Positions 6,536 through 14,872 of a stretch of DNA of 17,202 nt are shown piece by piece (the first letter of the stretch is position 1; each line of letters opens with the position of its first letter). The translations under genes were made by a program, and so were the position numbers. Under the pieces are notes generated by a model, which made no database searches, was not told where the DNA came from, and was given only the letters and a program-made list of their open reading frames with translations. The stretch covers positions 1-17,202 of the forward strand of contig JAUQYZ020000151.1 of NCBI GenBank assembly GCA_030587475.2, read 5' to 3'. Source of the DNA: Candidatus Sigynarchaeum calidifontis. Lineage in GTDB: Archaea; Asgardarchaeota; Lokiarchaeia; Sigyniarchaeales; Sigyniarchaeaceae.

Positions 6536-7642
6536 CTATTTCTTCGCAGTTAATGCTTCCGGCCTCTCGAGCCGGGACTTTTTCTTGTTCTTGATGCGAG
6601 GGACGAGCGCGAACAGCCCCCAGCCCGCGAGTGAGCCCAGGTATTCTGCCATTGGAATAGCAATCATGGCGAATGCCTTGTTCCAGCCGATCATGGTGAA
6701 CGTGATGATGGCGATGGCGATGTATGCCGCCAGCAGGCTGAAATGCACGGCTTTTCTCTTGGTCAAGCCGAATTGCTGCGTGAACACGAACATGCCCATG
6801 AAGCCGAAGAAAAAAATCGGCCATGACAGGCCAGACGATGACGCGTTCCTGATGTAATCGCTCTCGATCGCGACCGTCGTACCATGGAGCCAGACGAATG
6901 CTTCGAGGAACAAGATCCACTTGCGGCCCAGGTGCACCTTGAGCAAGAACGTGGACGACTGGAACAGCAGCAAGAACATGTACATGAACCCGAAGAACAT
7001 GGCAAGCGAGCCATCCATCGGGTGGAACCAGAACGTGTACACGAGTGCCCATTGGATGTAATACCCGTGCCACTTGTATAAGCCATTCATGGCGTCCTTG
7101 CCGATGGGCAGCTTTTTCCCCCAGATGAATCCGCGGCGCGCGTTCTCCATGAGCAAGATGAGCAAGAGCATCAAGATGACCGAGAATTGGCTCGTCCAGA
7201 TGGGCACGTCTTGCGCGAGGCCGTCGTACCATACTTGTGTCTGCACGAGATGGAGTACCACGAAGGCAAGGTTCACGAGAAGGATGACATAATGGTCCTT
7301 GTCAGGATCGTCCGACCATTGTGGCTTTCGTTCTCCGAGCTTCTTCATTACTCGCCAGGTCAACACCCAGAGCGTGATCTGGTGCGCCAGGTAAAATGTC
7401 CATGCCGTGAACCGTGGCCAGAAGAATTCCGCGGGCAATTGCCAGTAATACCACGTGGCGCCGAAGTCCGGCCAGAACGTGCCGTATATCCCTTCCATGC
7501 GTGATTGTAACCCAATGCTGAAGAACCACAGCACGAACGTGAATCCAATGCTGAACGCGATGCCGATCCAGAGCAATTTCTGGTCGGCTTTCAATCCTTT
7601 TTGTGTATTTTCGTTTCTATCCGTCTCGATTGTACTCTTCAT
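6536..7642 (-). CDS. Polytopic membrane protein of unknown function, rich in His, Trp and Tyr
   Basis: About 10 TM helices; blocks that look conserved: WYYWQLP, YLAHQ, LHLVQTQVWYDGLAQDVP, ENARRG, WHGYY, YTFWFHPM, WLHG; AAGGAG RBS. Confidence 0.85.
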   Translation of the reverse strand: MKSTIETDRNENTQKGLKADQKLLWIGIAFSIGFTFVLWFFSIGLQSRMEGIYGTFWPDFGATWYYWQLPAEFFWPRFTAWTFYLAHQITLWVLTWRVMKKLGERKPQWSDDPDKDHYVILLVNLAFVVLHLVQTQVWYDGLAQDVPIWTSQFSVILMLLLILLMENARRGFIWGKKLPIGKDAMNGLYKWHGYYIQWALVYTFWFHPMDGSLAMFFGFMYMFLLLFQSSTFLLKVHLGRKWILFLEAFVWLHGTTVAIESDYIRNASSSGLSWPIFFFGFMGMFVFTQQFGLTKRKAVHFSLLAAYIAIAIITFTMIGWNKAFAMIAIPMAEYLGSLAGWGLFALVPRIKNKKKSRLERPEALTAKK

Positions 7643-7809: not shown

Positions 7810-8676
7810 ATGTATGTAGAAACGAAAAAGGTCACGGTATCGTGCCCGGTCTGCAAAAAGGAGGTCGATATCGAATTACCGACCACTCTCGTGAAGGAAG
7901 CACCAGATGGCATACTGAAAATCCAAGTTCCCATTGAGAAAGGGTGCCCTTCACATTCTTTCATGGTATTCATAGATAAAAATTTCAAGGTACGCGGTTA
8001 TCAACAAGCCGACCTTGAATTCAACTTGAAACCTTCAAGAGCTGCATTTTCGCCCTTGCCCGCAGCTGCCGAGAGCGAAATCCAATCTTTTAACGTGAAC
8101 GATCTCATCAACACGGTCGGCGTCGAGATCGCGGCCATGATGCTCCGGACGATTCTCGTGAAGAAACCCGTTCTCTTCATGAACACGTATGACTTGAACA
8201 ACCGTGCCGAAAAGGCGGTCAAGCTGTTCCAGGACATGGAATCGGACGATCTCATCATCACGGCGGACATTATCGACCAAAAAAGGTTGAACGACAAGAA
8301 TATCGAGAGATCGAATCCCTTCGTCTATGCTATCTTGTATCGCGCCATCTTGCGTTCACCGTTCCCCGGGAAAATCAAGACCGCGCTGGAAACAACGCTG
8401 CTCGAGGAAACATCCGAGATCCCCGACCGACAAGGACAAATCGCCTTCCTCCGGCGTGAATTGGTCAAGATCTCGCGAATCATTGACGAGCTTGCAAGCA
8501 AATTGAAGGTTATGACCCAGATCTACGAGGAGGATCTTCCTGAATTCTTGCAAAAGAACTGGAACTATAAAGCGACGGGAAAGCAAGTCATCGGGCTGAA
8601 GGAGATCCTCGCGGCGAGGCACGGGGAGAAGATAGCAGCGAAGATCAAGAGCAAATCGGTCGAATACTTGCTTTGA
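7810..8676 (+). CDS. Hypothetical protein: N-terminal Zn-binding domain (CPVC...C-x2-H), then a DENN-core-like alpha/beta region and a helical tail
   Basis: The N-terminus CPVC-x-GILKIQVP-x-GCPSHSFMVFIDKNFKVRGYQ is of a type I associate with Lokiarchaeia hypotheticals. The CDS itself is clear; the DENN call is tentative. Confidence 0.8.
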   Translation: MYVETKKVTVSCPVCKKEVDIELPTTLVKEAPDGILKIQVPIEKGCPSHSFMVFIDKNFKVRGYQQADLEFNLKPSRAAFSPLPAAAESEIQSFNVNDLINTVGVEIAAMMLRTILVKKPVLFMNTYDLNNRAEKAVKLFQDMESDDLIITADIIDQKRLNDKNIERSNPFVYAILYRAILRSPFPGKIKTALETTLLEETSEIPDRQGQIAFLRRELVKISRIIDELASKLKVMTQIYEEDLPEFLQKNWNYKATGKQVIGLKEILAARHGEKIAAKIKSKSVEYLL

Positions 8677-8755: not shown

Positions 8756-9733
8756 TTAGAAGAAATCGTCGAATGTCCAGTAGTGCTGCTCTTCCTCGTC
8801 CACGATCTTTTCGAAGATGAGGCGCGTCGCGGTATCACCGCGCTTCAGCGCCTCGGCGATGATCCCGCGATAGAGCACGATGGCCTCGTCTTCGGCCTTG
8901 TGTGCAAGGGCGAGGAATTGGTCCGCGTTGTCGCCGATGACGGGCAGCGGATCCGGCACGTGCACGCACTCGCCTTCGAGCAAGTAGATGCGCTCGGCGA
9001 TTTTTTCGAGGTGGCTCATCTCTTGGCGAGCCGTCTTGCTGAGGATGTCGCTGACAACCTTGGCCTTGTTCTTGTCTGTAATGACCTCTAGCGTCGTTTC
9101 TAACTTGCGCAGCGCCAGCATGTTTGCTTTCTCGTGCGAGTTGACGTATTGGATGATGGCGCTTATCTCCGACGCGACGCCCTTGTTCAACAAGGTGAAG
9201 TAGTCGGCGGTGAAGATCTTGCGGAATTCCGTGGGTTCCGCTTGGGGTCCAGGCGGTTCCTTGTCATCGATCGTGAGCAACTCCTGGAACTTGAAGAGAT
9301 GCTTCTCCTCGTCGGCGTATATCTTGAGGAAATCGTTGAAGGTCTCGATGTCGCCGATCTTTTTGGCCTCTTCGAGGATTTTTCGGTACATGACCAGCGC
9401 TTCCTCTTCTGCCTTGAAGTCATTCTTCATGAATTCCTTGAGACCATCGCCGACCGTGACCTTCGCAGCCTTGGTCGTGGCCTTTCCTCCGAGCAGGTAG
9501 ATGCGCTCCATTATGGTCCCGGCATGTTTCATCTCCTGGATGCCAAACTCTTTCAAAAACGCTGCTATCGCGTCATAGACCGTTTTATCGAGAAGGAGAT
9601 TCTCCGCCTTGATCTTCCGGAGGATTTTCTCCATCTTCGCGTGCTGCAAGATGTATTGAACGGATACTTGCAGCTCCCTTTCCACAGCTTGATTCAAGAG
9701 TGCAATGTATTCGTCGTTGATCACGACTGCCAT
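8756..9733 (-). CDS. Tandem two-domain bacterioferritin-like (ferritin-like diiron) protein
   Basis: Domain 1: LLNQAVERELQVSVQY, QEMKH..IMERIYLLGG, AEEEA..Y, DEEKH. Domain 2: LLNKGVASEISAIIQY, QEMSH..IAERIYLLEG, AEDEA..Y, EEEQH. The two are joined by a Pro-rich linker. Confidence 0.92.
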   Translation of the reverse strand: MAVVINDEYIALLNQAVERELQVSVQYILQHAKMEKILRKIKAENLLLDKTVYDAIAAFLKEFGIQEMKHAGTIMERIYLLGGKATTKAAKVTVGDGLKEFMKNDFKAEEEALVMYRKILEEAKKIGDIETFNDFLKIYADEEKHLFKFQELLTIDDKEPPGPQAEPTEFRKIFTADYFTLLNKGVASEISAIIQYVNSHEKANMLALRKLETTLEVITDKNKAKVVSDILSKTARQEMSHLEKIAERIYLLEGECVHVPDPLPVIGDNADQFLALAHKAEDEAIVLYRGIIAEALKRGDTATRLIFEKIVDEEEQHYWTFDDFF

Positions 9734-9841: not shown

Positions 9842-10369
9842 TCAAGCATTCTTGTTCGCGTCGAATAACTCGATGATCCGACGCGCGACATCATCGATCG
9901 ACAGATTCGAGGTATCGATGGTCAATGACGTCGCTGCCGCATAGAAAGGTGCTCTTATAGACAACAGCCGCTGGATTTCCGCTTCTGGATCGGGCTTGGC
10001 AAGCAGCGGTCGCTTCTCCCGCTCCTCGCTGACCAGTCGCTTGAACAAGATGTCGGGCCTCGCGGTGAGGCAAATCACCACGGCGGACTGGCGCATGTAG
10101 AGCATGTTGATCGTGTTGAGGACGGCACCCCCGCCGAGCGAAAAGACCGCGTTGTCCATCGAAGCGGCCTCCTTGATGGCAGCGATCTCGAGTTCCCGGA
10201 ACCGGATCTCGCCATCCTCGTTAAATATCTTCGTTATGGGCTTCTTGGCGGCAGCCTCGATCATGGTATCGGTTTCAACGAACTTTTTTCCCGTTCGCTC
10301 TGCTACGAGACGGCCAGCTCGTGTCTTTCCCGTTCCCATGAAACCGATCAACGCGATATTATTTTTCAT
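9842..10369 (-). CDS. aroK: Shikimate kinase, bacterial P-loop (NMP-kinase fold) type
   Basis: GFMGTGKT Walker A, FVETD, GEIRFRELE, LGGGAV, RPLL and RAPFY motifs. ATG at 10369 is preferred over TTG at 10372. Confidence 0.95.
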   Translation of the reverse strand: MKNNIALIGFMGTGKTRAGRLVAERTGKKFVETDTMIEAAAKKPITKIFNEDGEIRFRELEIAAIKEAASMDNAVFSLGGGAVLNTINMLYMRQSAVVICLTARPDILFKRLVSEEREKRPLLAKPDPEAEIQRLLSIRAPFYAAATSLTIDTSNLSIDDVARRIIELFDANKNA

Positions 10370-10400
10370 CAAAAATCGCCGTGTTTTGACATGTCTTGCT

Positions 10401-10538: not shown

Positions 10539-11417
10539 ATGCCCGGTACCGAAGCAATCTCGGGAAAAACGAAAATCTTGTGTGTTATCGGCGATCCCAT
10601 CGAGCATACCATGAGCCCGGCCATGCATAACGCCGCGATCAAGGCGCTTGGTCTTGATCTTGTTTATGTCGCATTTCACGTGAAACGGGAGATGTTGAAA
10701 CAAGCCTTCGATGGTTTCCGGGCGCTTGGCATTCTTGGCATAAACATTACCATCCCGCACAAGGTTACCGCGATGCAATGGCTCGACGAGGTGGATCCCG
10801 TCGCGAAAGCCATCGGAGCCATAAACACGGTAAAGAATGATGGCGGGAAGCTCGTCGGACACAATACTGACGCGGACGGGGCAGCACGGGCTTTGAAAGC
10901 AGCCGGCGTCGTGATGAAGGATTCCAAGGTTGCCGTGCTTGGCGTTGGGGGTGCCGCACGCGCGGTCGGATTCGCGCTTGCGAGGGAAGGTGCATCCGTG
11001 CAATTCCTCTACCGCAGCGAGGACGCGTCAATGGCCTTGGAACTGGCACGAGATATAAAGATATTCTTTCCATCCGCCCCGGTCGACACGGTGTTGATGA
11101 ACGGGGCCAGCATCGAGATGGCTTGCCGAGAATCTAACATCCTCGTGAACGCGACGCCAATCGGCATGCATCCTCGCTCAGACGAGACGCTCGTCGATCG
11201 GCATTTCTTGCAAGACAAGTTGTGCGTGTTCGACGTCGTTTACAACCCCCTCGAGACCCGCCTCATCAAGGACGCCAAGGCTGCTGGCTGCAAGGTAGTT
11301 CTCGGCATAGACATGCTGGTCTACCAGGGTGCCATGGCATTCGAGTGGTGGACGGGCAAGGAGCCGCCGGTCGACGTGATGCGGCGGGTGGCGATCGAGA
11401 GGCTCAGCTTCAAGTAA
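10539..11417 (+). CDS. aroE: Shikimate dehydrogenase
   Basis: GDPIEHTMSPAMHN, NITIPHK, GAINT, NTD, GVGGAAR, NATPIGM, DVVYNPLET and MLVYQG motifs. Confidence 0.96.
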   Translation: MPGTEAISGKTKILCVIGDPIEHTMSPAMHNAAIKALGLDLVYVAFHVKREMLKQAFDGFRALGILGINITIPHKVTAMQWLDEVDPVAKAIGAINTVKNDGGKLVGHNTDADGAARALKAAGVVMKDSKVAVLGVGGAARAVGFALAREGASVQFLYRSEDASMALELARDIKIFFPSAPVDTVLMNGASIEMACRESNILVNATPIGMHPRSDETLVDRHFLQDKLCVFDVVYNPLETRLIKDAKAAGCKVVLGIDMLVYQGAMAFEWWTGKEPPVDVMRRVAIERLSFK

Positions 11418-11461: not shown

Positions 11462-12739
11462 ATGACGATCGAAATCTCCAACGATGATGCAGAGGCCATG
11501 TACTCGTTCGTCCGGGCCATCTGCAATGACATTGGCCCCCGGGCACCGTGCAGCGCGGGGGAGGCAAAAGCGGCGGAATTCATCAAGGCGGAAATGCAGA
11601 AGACGTGCAACCACGTGGAGATCGAGCCGTTCACTTGCGCGCCCGGCGGCCTGCTTGGCTGGATACGTCCCGCCATCGTCCTGGTCGTGAGCTCCCTCGT
11701 GCTCTACCTCGTCGTCGCGTTTGCGCTGCAAGGCATCGGCAAGATCGCGTTTTACGTGACGTGTCTCGCGCTGGTCATCACCGCCTGGGTTATCGCGTGG
11801 AAGGAGTTTTTCAGCTACGAGGAATTCATCGACCACTTTCTCAAGAAAGGCTCTTCCCAGAACGTGATCGGTCGCATCATGCCCGCAGGCGAGGTCAAGC
11901 GGGTGATCGCGTTTTCCGGCCACCACGACTCGGCGTTGCGGTTCAACTTGTTGGAATACCTGGGCGGGGTCGGCTATGGGGTGAGCATCGCGTGGGGATT
12001 CGGGCTCTGGATCACGTGGACGGGCACGCTCGCGGTCGCTATCGTGGCTGAGGTTGCGAGGGTTGACATGGGCGGGATTAACACCTTCACGGCCTGGCTC
12101 GGCATTGTCGGGTCGCCGGCCATGGTGTTATTGTGGTTTTTCAGGAGCAGCGACGAGCGCGGGAACGTGGTCCCCGGCGCCGTCGACAACATCAGCGCGG
12201 TGGCGGTCGTCCTCGCCATCGGGAGATACCTGCGCGCACATCCCGATGTCATGCCCGACGGCACGGAAATCCGCCTCATCTCGTTCGGGTGCGAGGAAGC
12301 GGCGCTGCGCGGCGCGAGGCGATATGTCGAAGCTCACCGCCAGGAGCTGAAGGGCTCCAACTTCCAGCTCGTGAACATGGACGGTTTGCAGTCCCCGAAG
12401 AGTTTCATGCTGTTCTCGTTCGAGCCGACGACCCGGACCCCACACGACCCCCGAGTGACAGAGGGCATCATTGCAGCGGCCCGCAAGGTCGGGCTGCCCG
12501 TGGTCTCATTTGGTAGCAGGGCGATCGACCGCGTGGCCGGGTTTTTCTCCGGTGGCACGGACGCCGCGGCATTTTCCAAGGCAGGGATCCCCGCCAGCAC
12601 GTTCGGGGCCTTGGATGTCTTGAAATACATCAACAACTACCACACGAGCCGCGACACGCCCGATCGCATAGAGCCGGGCACCTTGGAAGGAGCGCTGAAG
12701 ATCTGCTTGCAATACATCGTTGATGCAAAGATGAAATGA
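11462..12739 (+). CDS. M28-family zinc metallopeptidase with inserted transmembrane hairpins
   Basis: GHHDS, GAVDNISAV, GCEEAALRG, NMDG, GTDA and YHTSRD give a complete ligand set; two hydrophobic helix pairs lie inside the domain. Confidence 0.88.
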   Translation: MTIEISNDDAEAMYSFVRAICNDIGPRAPCSAGEAKAAEFIKAEMQKTCNHVEIEPFTCAPGGLLGWIRPAIVLVVSSLVLYLVVAFALQGIGKIAFYVTCLALVITAWVIAWKEFFSYEEFIDHFLKKGSSQNVIGRIMPAGEVKRVIAFSGHHDSALRFNLLEYLGGVGYGVSIAWGFGLWITWTGTLAVAIVAEVARVDMGGINTFTAWLGIVGSPAMVLLWFFRSSDERGNVVPGAVDNISAVAVVLAIGRYLRAHPDVMPDGTEIRLISFGCEEAALRGARRYVEAHRQELKGSNFQLVNMDGLQSPKSFMLFSFEPTTRTPHDPRVTEGIIAAARKVGLPVVSFGSRAIDRVAGFFSGGTDAAAFSKAGIPASTFGALDVLKYINNYHTSRDTPDRIEPGTLEGALKICLQYIVDAKMK

Positions 12740-12751
12740 ACCCCGTTGGAT

Positions 12752-14026
12752 TCACTTGATCGCGCCGGCGCGCAAGAAATACGGCGCGTATAGTATTTTT
12801 TTCAAGGTCGGGATGGCCTGGAAGATCATTTCGCCTGCCTTGAAATCCACGTCGTCCGTGGTCTCGGCATAATCGAGCTCAAAGCACTTGACAAGGAGTG
12901 CGCGTAAATCCTTGTTTTTTGCAAGTGCTTCGATAAAAAAAGTCCAGAGCGACTCGTCAGACATCGCTTCCCAGAAGAGCCAGCTATTCTTCCGCCCGGA
13001 GCGGTTGAACTTGTTGACCAGGTTGCGCGCGAGCAGCGCCTTGTAGCCCGCGAGGTTTTCCGCCGTCGGTACCTTTTTTTCTTCGCGCAGCCTTGCTACT
13101 GTCTCGACCGCGTATTTCGCACTGGCCCGTCCTTGCCATACCCCCTCGTAATAAAACGGGTGTGTCAAGCCAGCCGCATCGCCGAGAACGAGCAACCGGT
13201 TCCCGTGCGGGTACTTGATCGGGGCGCGCGGGATGAGCGCGATCGCGTGCGAGGATTTTTGGCCGTGCCACGTCTTTTCCTTGACCCCGGTAAAGAAATC
13301 CTTGACCCGCGGATCCTTCTCGATCGTGTTCTTGTAACGCTCCCACGACACGTGATGGTCGATGATGCCTGCGTTGAAGGAATCCTTCCTGCACGTGATC
13401 CAGAATGGGCCGATGGAGGTCACCTGCTTGTTCATGTAGTAGTGGTAGGCGCCGCTGGATAGCACGTCCTCGACGTGCCGTTCGCTGCATTCATACTCGC
13501 AAATGAGTGATTGGACGACTGGAGGCTTTTCAATGCCGAGCTGGTCGTGCAAGTGAAAGCCGGACGTGCCGGTTGCCAGGAAAAGGACGTCGCCCTGGAT
13601 GGTGAACTCGGGCAGGCCACTGGTTTCGCACGTGGCGGCAACGTGATCGCTCGTGACCTGGATTTTTTTAGCACGCGTAAGATCGTGAATGTCCGCACCC
13701 TTTTTTTCGGCCATGTCGAGCATGTATTTGTCGAATGTCGACCGCAAGATGATCTTGCCCAGCGTGGTGGCGAACTCGCGACCATCAAGCACGACGCTGC
13801 TCGTTGGCGACATCGGCTTCATCGTTACCATGTCGCGTTCGAACACGCTACCAGGCAGCGGTGGAAAACCCTTAAACGAGTGCAAAGGAAAGACTCCAGA
13901 GCAAGGATGGTAGGCGCCGCGATCGCTTGCCTCGACGAGGGAGACCGATAGGCCTCGCTCGGCCGCGAGCCACGCAGCCATGGCACCCGACGCCCCGCCC
14001 CCGATGATGACGATGTCCTTTTTCAC
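12752..14026 (-). CDS. Geranylgeranyl-reductase-family FAD-dependent oxidoreductase
   Basis: IIGGGASG dinucleotide motif, HPCSG, RSTFDKYM, LATG and GDAAGLTHPFYYEG. The start is uncertain (GTG at 14026 or TTG at 14065). Confidence 0.85.
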   Translation of the reverse strand: MKKDIVIIGGGASGAMAAWLAAERGLSVSLVEASDRGAYHPCSGVFPLHSFKGFPPLPGSVFERDMVTMKPMSPTSSVVLDGREFATTLGKIILRSTFDKYMLDMAEKKGADIHDLTRAKKIQVTSDHVAATCETSGLPEFTIQGDVLFLATGTSGFHLHDQLGIEKPPVVQSLICEYECSERHVEDVLSSGAYHYYMNKQVTSIGPFWITCRKDSFNAGIIDHHVSWERYKNTIEKDPRVKDFFTGVKEKTWHGQKSSHAIALIPRAPIKYPHGNRLLVLGDAAGLTHPFYYEGVWQGRASAKYAVETVARLREEKKVPTAENLAGYKALLARNLVNKFNRSGRKNSWLFWEAMSDESLWTFFIEALAKNKDLRALLVKCFELDYAETTDDVDFKAGEMIFQAIPTLKKILYAPYFLRAGAIK

Positions 14027-14110
14027 GATACCTGGAAGCGCGCCAAGCCTTTTGAACACCGGCAAGGAGTCGCGGGTTTTTTTAGGTGCGGTAAGGTTGT
14101 TTCTTCAGCT

Positions 14111-14872
14111 ATGAAGAAACTGCCGATCGCCGCCGCGCTGCCCGTGACCGAGAAATACATCTCATCGGGAGGGCTGGCCACAGACATCAAGAAGGTTGGC
14201 GAGGGGCCCGCTTCGTACGTCGAGCTGCGGTTGGATTACGCCCGCAATGTCGAGGCATTGGACCTCAAGATGCTGATCGAAACTTGTCAAGCAGCGAACC
14301 TGGAATCGATTTGTACGTGCCGCGTGAAGGCAAAGGCGCAAGGCGGGAACTATGTACCACGCGACCTGGCATCGCATGAAGCCCTCCTACTGCGCATTAT
14401 CGAGACAAAGCCATCCCTGGTTGATGTTGAACTCGTAAATGACGCCAGCTTGCTCGATGCGGCCCTACAAGCGTGCAAGCAGCACGGGGTCGGCCTGATC
14501 TTGTCTCTCCATGACTTCGAGTCCACGCCCCCCGCGGCAGAAGTCGACGCGATGTGTGATTTGCTCGTGCAAGCGGTCGCCCAGCATCCCCCAGAACGTG
14601 ATCACATCGTGTTCAAAGTGGTTTTCACGGCCAGGAAGGCTGTGGATAATGCAATACCGTTTCGCGTCATCGACCGGCTCTCGGCGACCGGCCGAGACGT
14701 GGTGTCTTTTTGCATGGGCACGGAAGGACTTGTCTCCCGTGTTGCATGCGTGATACCGCGGTCGGATGGACGGGCTGCGGCAAAGCTCACGTTCGCCTCT
14801 TTCGGGCAGCAAACCGCCCCGGGGCAAATCGACATAGCAACGATGGCTGCACTTCTTGATCCTTTCTTTTGA
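14111..14872 (+). CDS. aroD: Type I 3-dehydroquinate dehydratase
   Basis: VELRLD, TCR...QGG, VDVEL, SLHDFESTP (catalytic His), FKVV (Schiff-base Lys), MG..G..SR and TAPGQI motifs. Confidence 0.92.
   Translation: MKKLPIAAALPVTEKYISSGGLATDIKKVGEGPASYVELRLDYARNVEALDLKMLIETCQAANLESICTCRVKAKAQGGNYVPRDLASHEALLLRIIETKPSLVDVELVNDASLLDAALQACKQHGVGLILSLHDFESTPPAAEVDAMCDLLVQAVAQHPPERDHIVFKVVFTARKAVDNAIPFRVIDRLSATGRDVVSFCMGTEGLVSRVACVIPRSDGRAAAKLTFASFGQQTAPGQIDIATMAALLDPFF

Follow-up and report, generated by a model that had tools for sequence, protein, structure and literature searches.

The ferritin-like open reading frame (ORF) of the analyzed window, the whole 17,202-nucleotide stretch of DNA from Candidatus Sigynarchaeum calidifontis, very probably encodes a member of the archaeal double ferritin (dFTN) family. 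The assignment is based on 61% identity over the full length (325 residues, one gap) to a dFTN-type protein of Heimdallarchaeum (L006), on the published dFTN residues carried by the L006 protein, and on the conservation of an insert throughout the family. As such, the gene is an ordinary member of an already described family and opens no new category. The initial annotation, made from the sequence alone, had regarded the protein as a novel single-chain bacterioferritin dimer; this novelty falls because the architecture matches that already described for dFTN, a characterized tandem ferritin family. The pseudo-dimer, the insert common to both domains and the absent helix E were nevertheless picked out from the raw sequence, and the same features have been explained by structural work.

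Pfam analysis revealed two Ferritin (PF00210) stretches in the protein (E 2.4e-34), and the positions of the individual features are given in Table 1. Alignment of domain 1 against domain 2 demonstrated 35% identity over 153 residues (E 2e-25), far above chance, which bore out the proposed homology of the two domains. The predicted E / Y / ExxH / E / ExxH set, with a methionine inside the first ExxH, was completely present in both, as E20/Y27/E67-M68-x-H70/E111/E142-xx-H145 in domain 1 (QEMKH) and E189/Y196/E238-M239-x-H241/E281/E314-xx-H317 in domain 2 (QEMSH). Each domain contains a complete diiron site of four Glu and two His, consisting of E20, E67, H70, E111, E142, and H145 in domain 1 and E189, E238, H241, E281, E314, and H317 in domain 2. 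The long A-B segment noticed in both domains corresponds to an insert of 14–16 residues that is common to the two and lacking in single-domain mini-bacterioferritin-like relatives. An AlphaFold2 monomer model built from 42 homologues (pLDDT 91, pTM 0.90) predicted two four-helix bundles, with the A-B region modeled as extended helices plus a loop at lower pLDDT. No helix E was found after helix D in either domain of this model, in agreement with the initial reading that domain 2 ends at that point.

Table 1. Features of the dFTN gene and neighboring genes in the analyzed window (positions are those of the window)
Feature	Position	Strand	Remarks
dFTN (double ferritin) gene	8756..9733	-	ORF translation; 325 aa plus stop, ATG start
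N-terminal ferritin domain, residues 1-157	9263..9733	-	PF00210 stretch 10-154; envelope 5-157
A-B insert, domain 1, residues 33-51	9581..9637	-	Counterpart of the short 'helix 2' of the homologue, pseudo-4-fold element
Met68 codon, domain 1, bacterioferritin heme-ligand position	9530..9532	-	Translation; equals M68 of Hend-dFTN
Inter-domain linker, residues 158-174	9212..9262	-	Low-pLDDT, non-helical in AlphaFold2 monomer model
C-terminal ferritin domain, residues 175-325	8759..9211	-	Envelope 175-325; chain stops after helix D
A-B insert, domain 2, residues 202-222	9068..9130	-	Aligns with domain-1 insert; L215, E216 conserved
Met239 codon, domain 2, heme-ligand position	9017..9019	-	Translation; equals M238 of Hend-dFTN
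368-aa multi-pass membrane ORF	6536-7642	-	No Pfam match at E <= 0.001
288-aa ORF, N-terminal CPVC...C..H motif	7810-8676	+	No Pfam match at E <= 0.001
Shikimate kinase	9842-10372	-	
Shikimate dehydrogenase	10539-11417	+	
M28 peptidase	11462-12739		
FAD oxidoreductase	12752-14065		
Type I 3-dehydroquinase	14111-14872	+	
Roadblock/LC7 domain protein, 139 aa	15190-15609	+	

Double ferritins named 'dFTN' were described as confined to Asgard and TACK archaea in a preprint that is not peer reviewed (10.64898/2026.08.25.747088, 26 Aug 2026), where their halves were reported as approximately 40% identical and were placed in the mini-bacterioferritin clade. [quoted passage not shown] In both domains, helix 1 is followed by a short helix (residues 43-47 and 213-219) ahead of the next long helix, and these short helices form a pseudo-4-fold bundle which replaces helix E, with L48 and L214 inside and E44 outside; both diiron sites are intact (10.64898/2026.08.25.747088).

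A residue count on the L006 sequence recovered 15 of the 15 Hend-dFTN residues quoted in the preprint, namely E44, L48, M68, R117, R121, K125, K132, R136, L214, M238, T295, K303, K304, E307, and E308. The window protein and Hend-dFTN share a length of 324-326 aa, two paralogous domains, the host phylum, the A-B insert with E44, L48, and L214 (L215 in the window protein), Met68 and Met238 (Met239 in the window protein), intact diiron sites, and the lack of helix E. Proteins of 324 aa are encoded by two closed genomes of the same phylum (G026 and G074), and the mean identity between N- and C-terminal halves across the family was 38%. The two proteins differ at the center of the N-domain 3-fold channel, where Hend-dFTN has K132/R136 and the window protein has F132/L136; the pore chemistry of the window protein may therefore differ. 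The closest relatives of the window protein likewise have F132 and L136, and R and E occupy these positions in most of the family.

By analogy with Hend-dFTN, one chain would consist of two mini-bacterioferritin-related four-helix bundles packed antiparallel, a covalent form of the bacterioferritin 2-fold dimer, and twelve such chains, with their 24 domains, would make up a tetrahedral shell. Each A-B insert is expected to form a short helix, and a pseudo-4-fold bundle would be built from two such helices of N-terminal domains and two of C-terminal domains; with the bundle made up in this way, helix E would be dispensable in both domains. Fe2+ would be oxidized at the two diiron centers of each chain and the ferric mineral kept in the cavity. 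Met68 and Met239 would be opposed across the pseudo-2-fold axis, in the place of the heme in bacterioferritins. The shell, the relocated helix and the methionine geometry are taken from the preprint, while motifs, conservation, paralogy, identity, and the absence of HemB/HemC were computed here. Two further suggestions of the initial annotation, an intramolecular pseudo-dimer and a non-canonical cage, are thus borne out in the 61%-identical homologue, by its pseudo-2-fold related domains and by a tetrahedral 12-mer of 24 domains with the A-B insert as the relocated equivalent of helix E. The Atlas model could be aligned over both domains with Chloroflexota/bacterial two-domain ferritins (TM 0.76-0.88; 0.82-0.88 by target), and this full-length match fits a common antiparallel arrangement of the modeled domains.

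A search of the organism's own genome with PF00210 revealed one further gene only, a rubrerythrin, which leaves the dFTN as the only cage-type ferritin detected in the genome. The rubrerythrin is 196 aa long with a C-terminal CxxC...CxxC rubredoxin-like tail (G000:C63:56290-56679; L003:1351-1941, minus strand).

The dFTN family is far larger than the 24 sequences of the preprint. A scan of species-representative genomes revealed relatives encoded by at least 242 species genomes, mostly of Bathyarchaeia; the best 80 of the 242 carried Bathyarchaeia/Bathyarchaeota titles except for one Thermoproteota and one 'uncultured archaeon'. The protein-cluster search yielded 1,728 matches of 178-569 aa, and nearly all of the best 120 among them were 322-326 aa long and mostly 63-73% identical. 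Further named homologues of the window protein belonged to Thorarchaeota and Asgard archaea. The gene is patchy within the phylum of the host, occurring in 12 of 151 genomes.

Of the 12 iron ligands, 11 were invariant among 184 unique full-length sequences, as were the two Tyr and the two Met; the sole exception among the ligands was an Asp at the E111 position in one sequence. The insert residues were also strongly conserved, with E44, N45, L47, L48, L215, and E216 nearly invariant and E44, L48, and L215 retained in 181-183 of the 184 sequences. Contacts of the Arg61/Glu127 type known from mini-bacterioferritin are kept in both domains as R77/E143 and R248/E315, of which R77 and R248 are invariant among the 184 sequences. 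The equivalent of mini-bacterioferritin His29 is present as H31 and H200.

The nearest solved single-domain relative suggests another assembly, a mini-cage of six chains and 12 domains as in the mini-bacterioferritin or Dps dodecamer, which was considered very unlikely. Mini-bacterioferritin (Mper-mBfr, PDB 9QQ4, Commun Biol 2026, PMC13168243) consists of a bare four-helix bundle and assembles into a 12-mer; Fe-coproporphyrin III is bound via Met50 at its dimer interface, with Arg13 and Tyr28 as ligands of the coproheme propionates (PMC13168243). It was the best structural match of domain 2 (Z 21.3, rmsd 1.1 Å over 134 residues; E 1.3e-11), with 31% sequence identity, and domain 1 had its best match in the Desulfovibrio bacterioferritin 1NF4. 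Mper-mBfr and the window protein have in common the lack of helix E, the Met at the heme position, the conserved Arg61/Glu127 equivalents and the retained His29 equivalent, the last of which also favors the mini-cage. However, mini-bacterioferritin is a single-domain protein with a 12-domain cage, a tight Gly34 loop and no A-B insert, and its ligands Arg13 and Tyr28 are not conserved in the window protein. With respect to the mini-bacterioferritin signature (His29, Gly34 loop, Met52, a single domain, no extensions), the window protein retains the His and Met but consists of two domains, and the insert takes the place of the Gly34 loop that marks the 12-mers. The homologue Hend-dFTN eluted at 400-450 kDa and contained 12 chains by cryo-EM, and AlphaFold3 hexamers were of low confidence according to the authors (10.64898/2026.08.25.747088).

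Classical bacterioferritin was ruled out as an identity, as the NCBIfam model TIGR00754 gave 57.2 bits, below its cut-off of 125.55, and neither domain contains helix E. Classical bacterioferritins (1NF4, 1BFR) share the diiron ligand set, the Met52-type heme position, and the 24-domain shell geometry, whereas their chain, approximately 158 aa long, is a single domain that terminates in helix E, and they form an octahedral 24-mer with heme between two chains.

Bacterial two-domain ferroxidases known as DFLPs contain an intrachain Met pair; they occur as dimers, do not build shells, and are frequently cargo of encapsulins (bioRxiv 10.1101/2025.09.13.676036). An encapsulin-targeting peptide or an encapsulin gene was reported for 56 of 157 DFLPs (10.1101/2025.09.13.676036). 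A protein of this bacterial type would be a homodimer-only ferroxidase that keeps no iron store of its own and serves as encapsulin cargo, and this was judged extremely improbable for the window protein. The resemblance is nevertheless real at several levels: in both protein types, the two ferritin domains of one chain are packed in the manner of a bacterioferritin dimer, a Met pair lies within the chain, and the chemistry is that of a ferroxidase (predicted for the window protein). The window protein also matched TmDFLP (PDB 9VIW) weakly in sequence (E 7e-8) and resembled the Chloroflexota two-domain ferritins in predicted structure, within the TM range given above. DFLPs differ, however, in that they are dimers with a disordered linker, a C-terminal diiron site that is often degenerate, and no A-B insert. 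Many DFLPs carry a C-terminal encapsulin-targeting peptide; the C-terminal residues of the window protein are HYWTFDDFF, the [LF]T[VI]G[SG]L peptide of the DFLP matches is missing, and no encapsulin (PF04454) match was found in the 89%-complete genome. The arginine of the mini-bacterioferritin contact is replaced by Met in the N-domain of the one DFLP inspected (P0212), in contrast to the invariant R77 and R248. In addition, shell formation has been demonstrated for a protein with 61% identity to the window protein.

The relationship to DFLPs was also evaluated by cutting the two-domain proteins into halves and placing these in a tree alongside single-domain relatives. The archaeal N and C halves formed one clade inside the mini-bacterioferritin-like group (SH-aLRT 91), while both DFLP halves formed a clade of their own (SH-aLRT 93). 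The mean BLAST score between archaeal N and C halves was 91 bits, compared to 38 against DFLP N halves and 28 against DFLP C halves. A tree that holds all N-domains together was not formally rejected by the AU test (p 0.155), and the phylogeny by itself thus does not settle the matter. Separate duplications are further favored by the insert, which the two archaeal halves have in common and neither DFLP half contains; on these sequence comparisons, dFTN and DFLP apparently arose by separate duplications. The assignment to the DFLP family was dropped on the basis of the tree, the BLAST score matrix, and the missing targeting peptide and encapsulin gene. The single archaeal clade and the score between its halves agree with the internal duplication that had been proposed, and the phylogeny of the halves suggested earlier placed both of them with mini-bacterioferritin-like proteins.

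Other arrangements of related domains could be observed among the sequences collected. A third two-domain ferritin (P0147, 291 aa) has halves that are 51% identical, with no insert and no encapsulin peptide; its halves group with plain mini-bacterioferritin-like proteins, and the dimer unit seems to have been duplicated independently in this protein as well. Four single-domain proteins of 159-172 aa (P0149, P0155, P0159, and P0162) carry a different insert of approximately 21 residues at the same A-B position, and they scored 93 bits against the dFTN N-domain, where the dFTN C-domain scored 91 bits. A genome of the same phylum but another family (G096, L090:75-1529) contains a 164-aa classical ferritin gene that is immediately followed by two unfused mini-bacterioferritin-type genes, with 21 bp between these two. 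Each of the unfused genes encodes a 138-aa protein with EMKH and no A-B insert. This match was rejected as a broken dFTN, being two adjacent single-domain genes instead, and the gene pair may resemble the state before fusion.

The dFTN gene of the window follows aroK on the same strand with a gap of 108 bp, and no iron-related neighbor was found within the window. The shikimate genes near the ferritin gene are dispersed over both strands, with the M28 peptidase and FAD oxidoreductase genes between them. Across related loci, the commonest neighbor was a 2-oxoacid:ferredoxin oxidoreductase, which occurred in 25 of 85. In the Bathyarchaeia loci (L010-L089), it lies on the same strand at a median of approximately 360 bp downstream of the dFTN gene, and it comprises a POR/POR_N/PFOR_II fusion of approximately 641 aa plus a TPP-binding beta subunit. 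The 2-oxoacid:ferredoxin oxidoreductase is an oxygen-sensitive Fe-S enzyme, and its pairing with dFTN may be functional or merely local synteny.

The initial annotation had further proposed a bis-Met heme site. Its geometric part stands, as M68 and M238 of Hend-dFTN face each other in the pseudo-2-fold interface; its heme is at most putative, given that the recombinant protein was colorless with no ligand density (10.64898/2026.08.25.747088) and that the hosts lack genes of porphyrin synthesis. In the own genome, at 89% completeness, HemB (PF00490), HemC (PF01379), the AhbA/B siroheme decarboxylase (PF17805), and cytochrome bd (PF01654) were not found. Three closed genomes are among the 12 of the phylum that bear dFTN, and HemB was missing from all 12; HemC was missing from all six tested (the own genome and five others). 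As HemB occurred in 7 of the 151 sampled genomes of the phylum, all from other families, its base rate is low and the joint absence amounts to no statistical association with dFTN. Outside the phylum, four of five dFTN-bearing Bathyarchaeia, one of them a complete chromosome, had neither HemB nor HemC. Altogether, HemB was not found in 16 of the 17 dFTN-bearing genomes tested (four closed), so that these hosts must scavenge whatever tetrapyrrole the Met-Met site may hold. The own genome also contains 22 matches to B12-binding domains. In the absence of HemB and HemC, the corrinoids must be imported, which means that uptake of tetrapyrrole-derived cofactors occurs; judged by its gene content, the host appears to be a corrinoid auxotroph and a heavy user of corrinoid enzymes.

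Two readings of the Met pair were weighed against this background. The protein may act in the cell as a true heme-type bacterioferritin, with Met68 and Met239 holding heme b or Fe-coproporphyrin III as an electron relay for iron release; this reading is possible but was held at clearly less than an even chance. Both methionines are invariant in the 184 sequences, their counterparts are ligands of heme in bacterioferritin and of coproheme in mini-bacterioferritin, and heme could be seated without rearrangement in an AlphaFold3 model of the preprint authors (10.64898/2026.08.25.747088). The import of tetrapyrrole-derived cofactors by the host is also in its favor. Against it are the colorless Hend-dFTN, the genome surveys of HemB and HemC, the missing AhbA/B and cytochrome bd of the own genome, and the residues around the site. 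The positions of the propionate ligands Arg13 and Tyr28 are replaced in both domains, by Val and Ala/Thr in domain 1 and by Val/Ala and Glu in domain 2. From this lack of conservation together with the absence of HemB and HemC, an endogenous heme ligand at the Met-Met site is unlikely. A role other than endogenous heme was also rated at somewhat less than an even chance: the Met pair may hold a scavenged tetrapyrrole (heme, coproheme, or possibly a corrinoid) as a store or an electron wire for the imported cofactor, or may have a tetrapyrrole-free role, for example in binding a metal or in the packing at the pseudo-2-fold interface.

The present analysis extends the preprint in the size of the family and in the finding that its hosts almost never have HemB/HemC, while the methionines at the heme position never vary. 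The question raised in the preprint, whether a heme-like ligand is bound in nature, can thereby be posed in testable form, with a scavenged cofactor on one side and a Met pair that acts independently of heme on the other.
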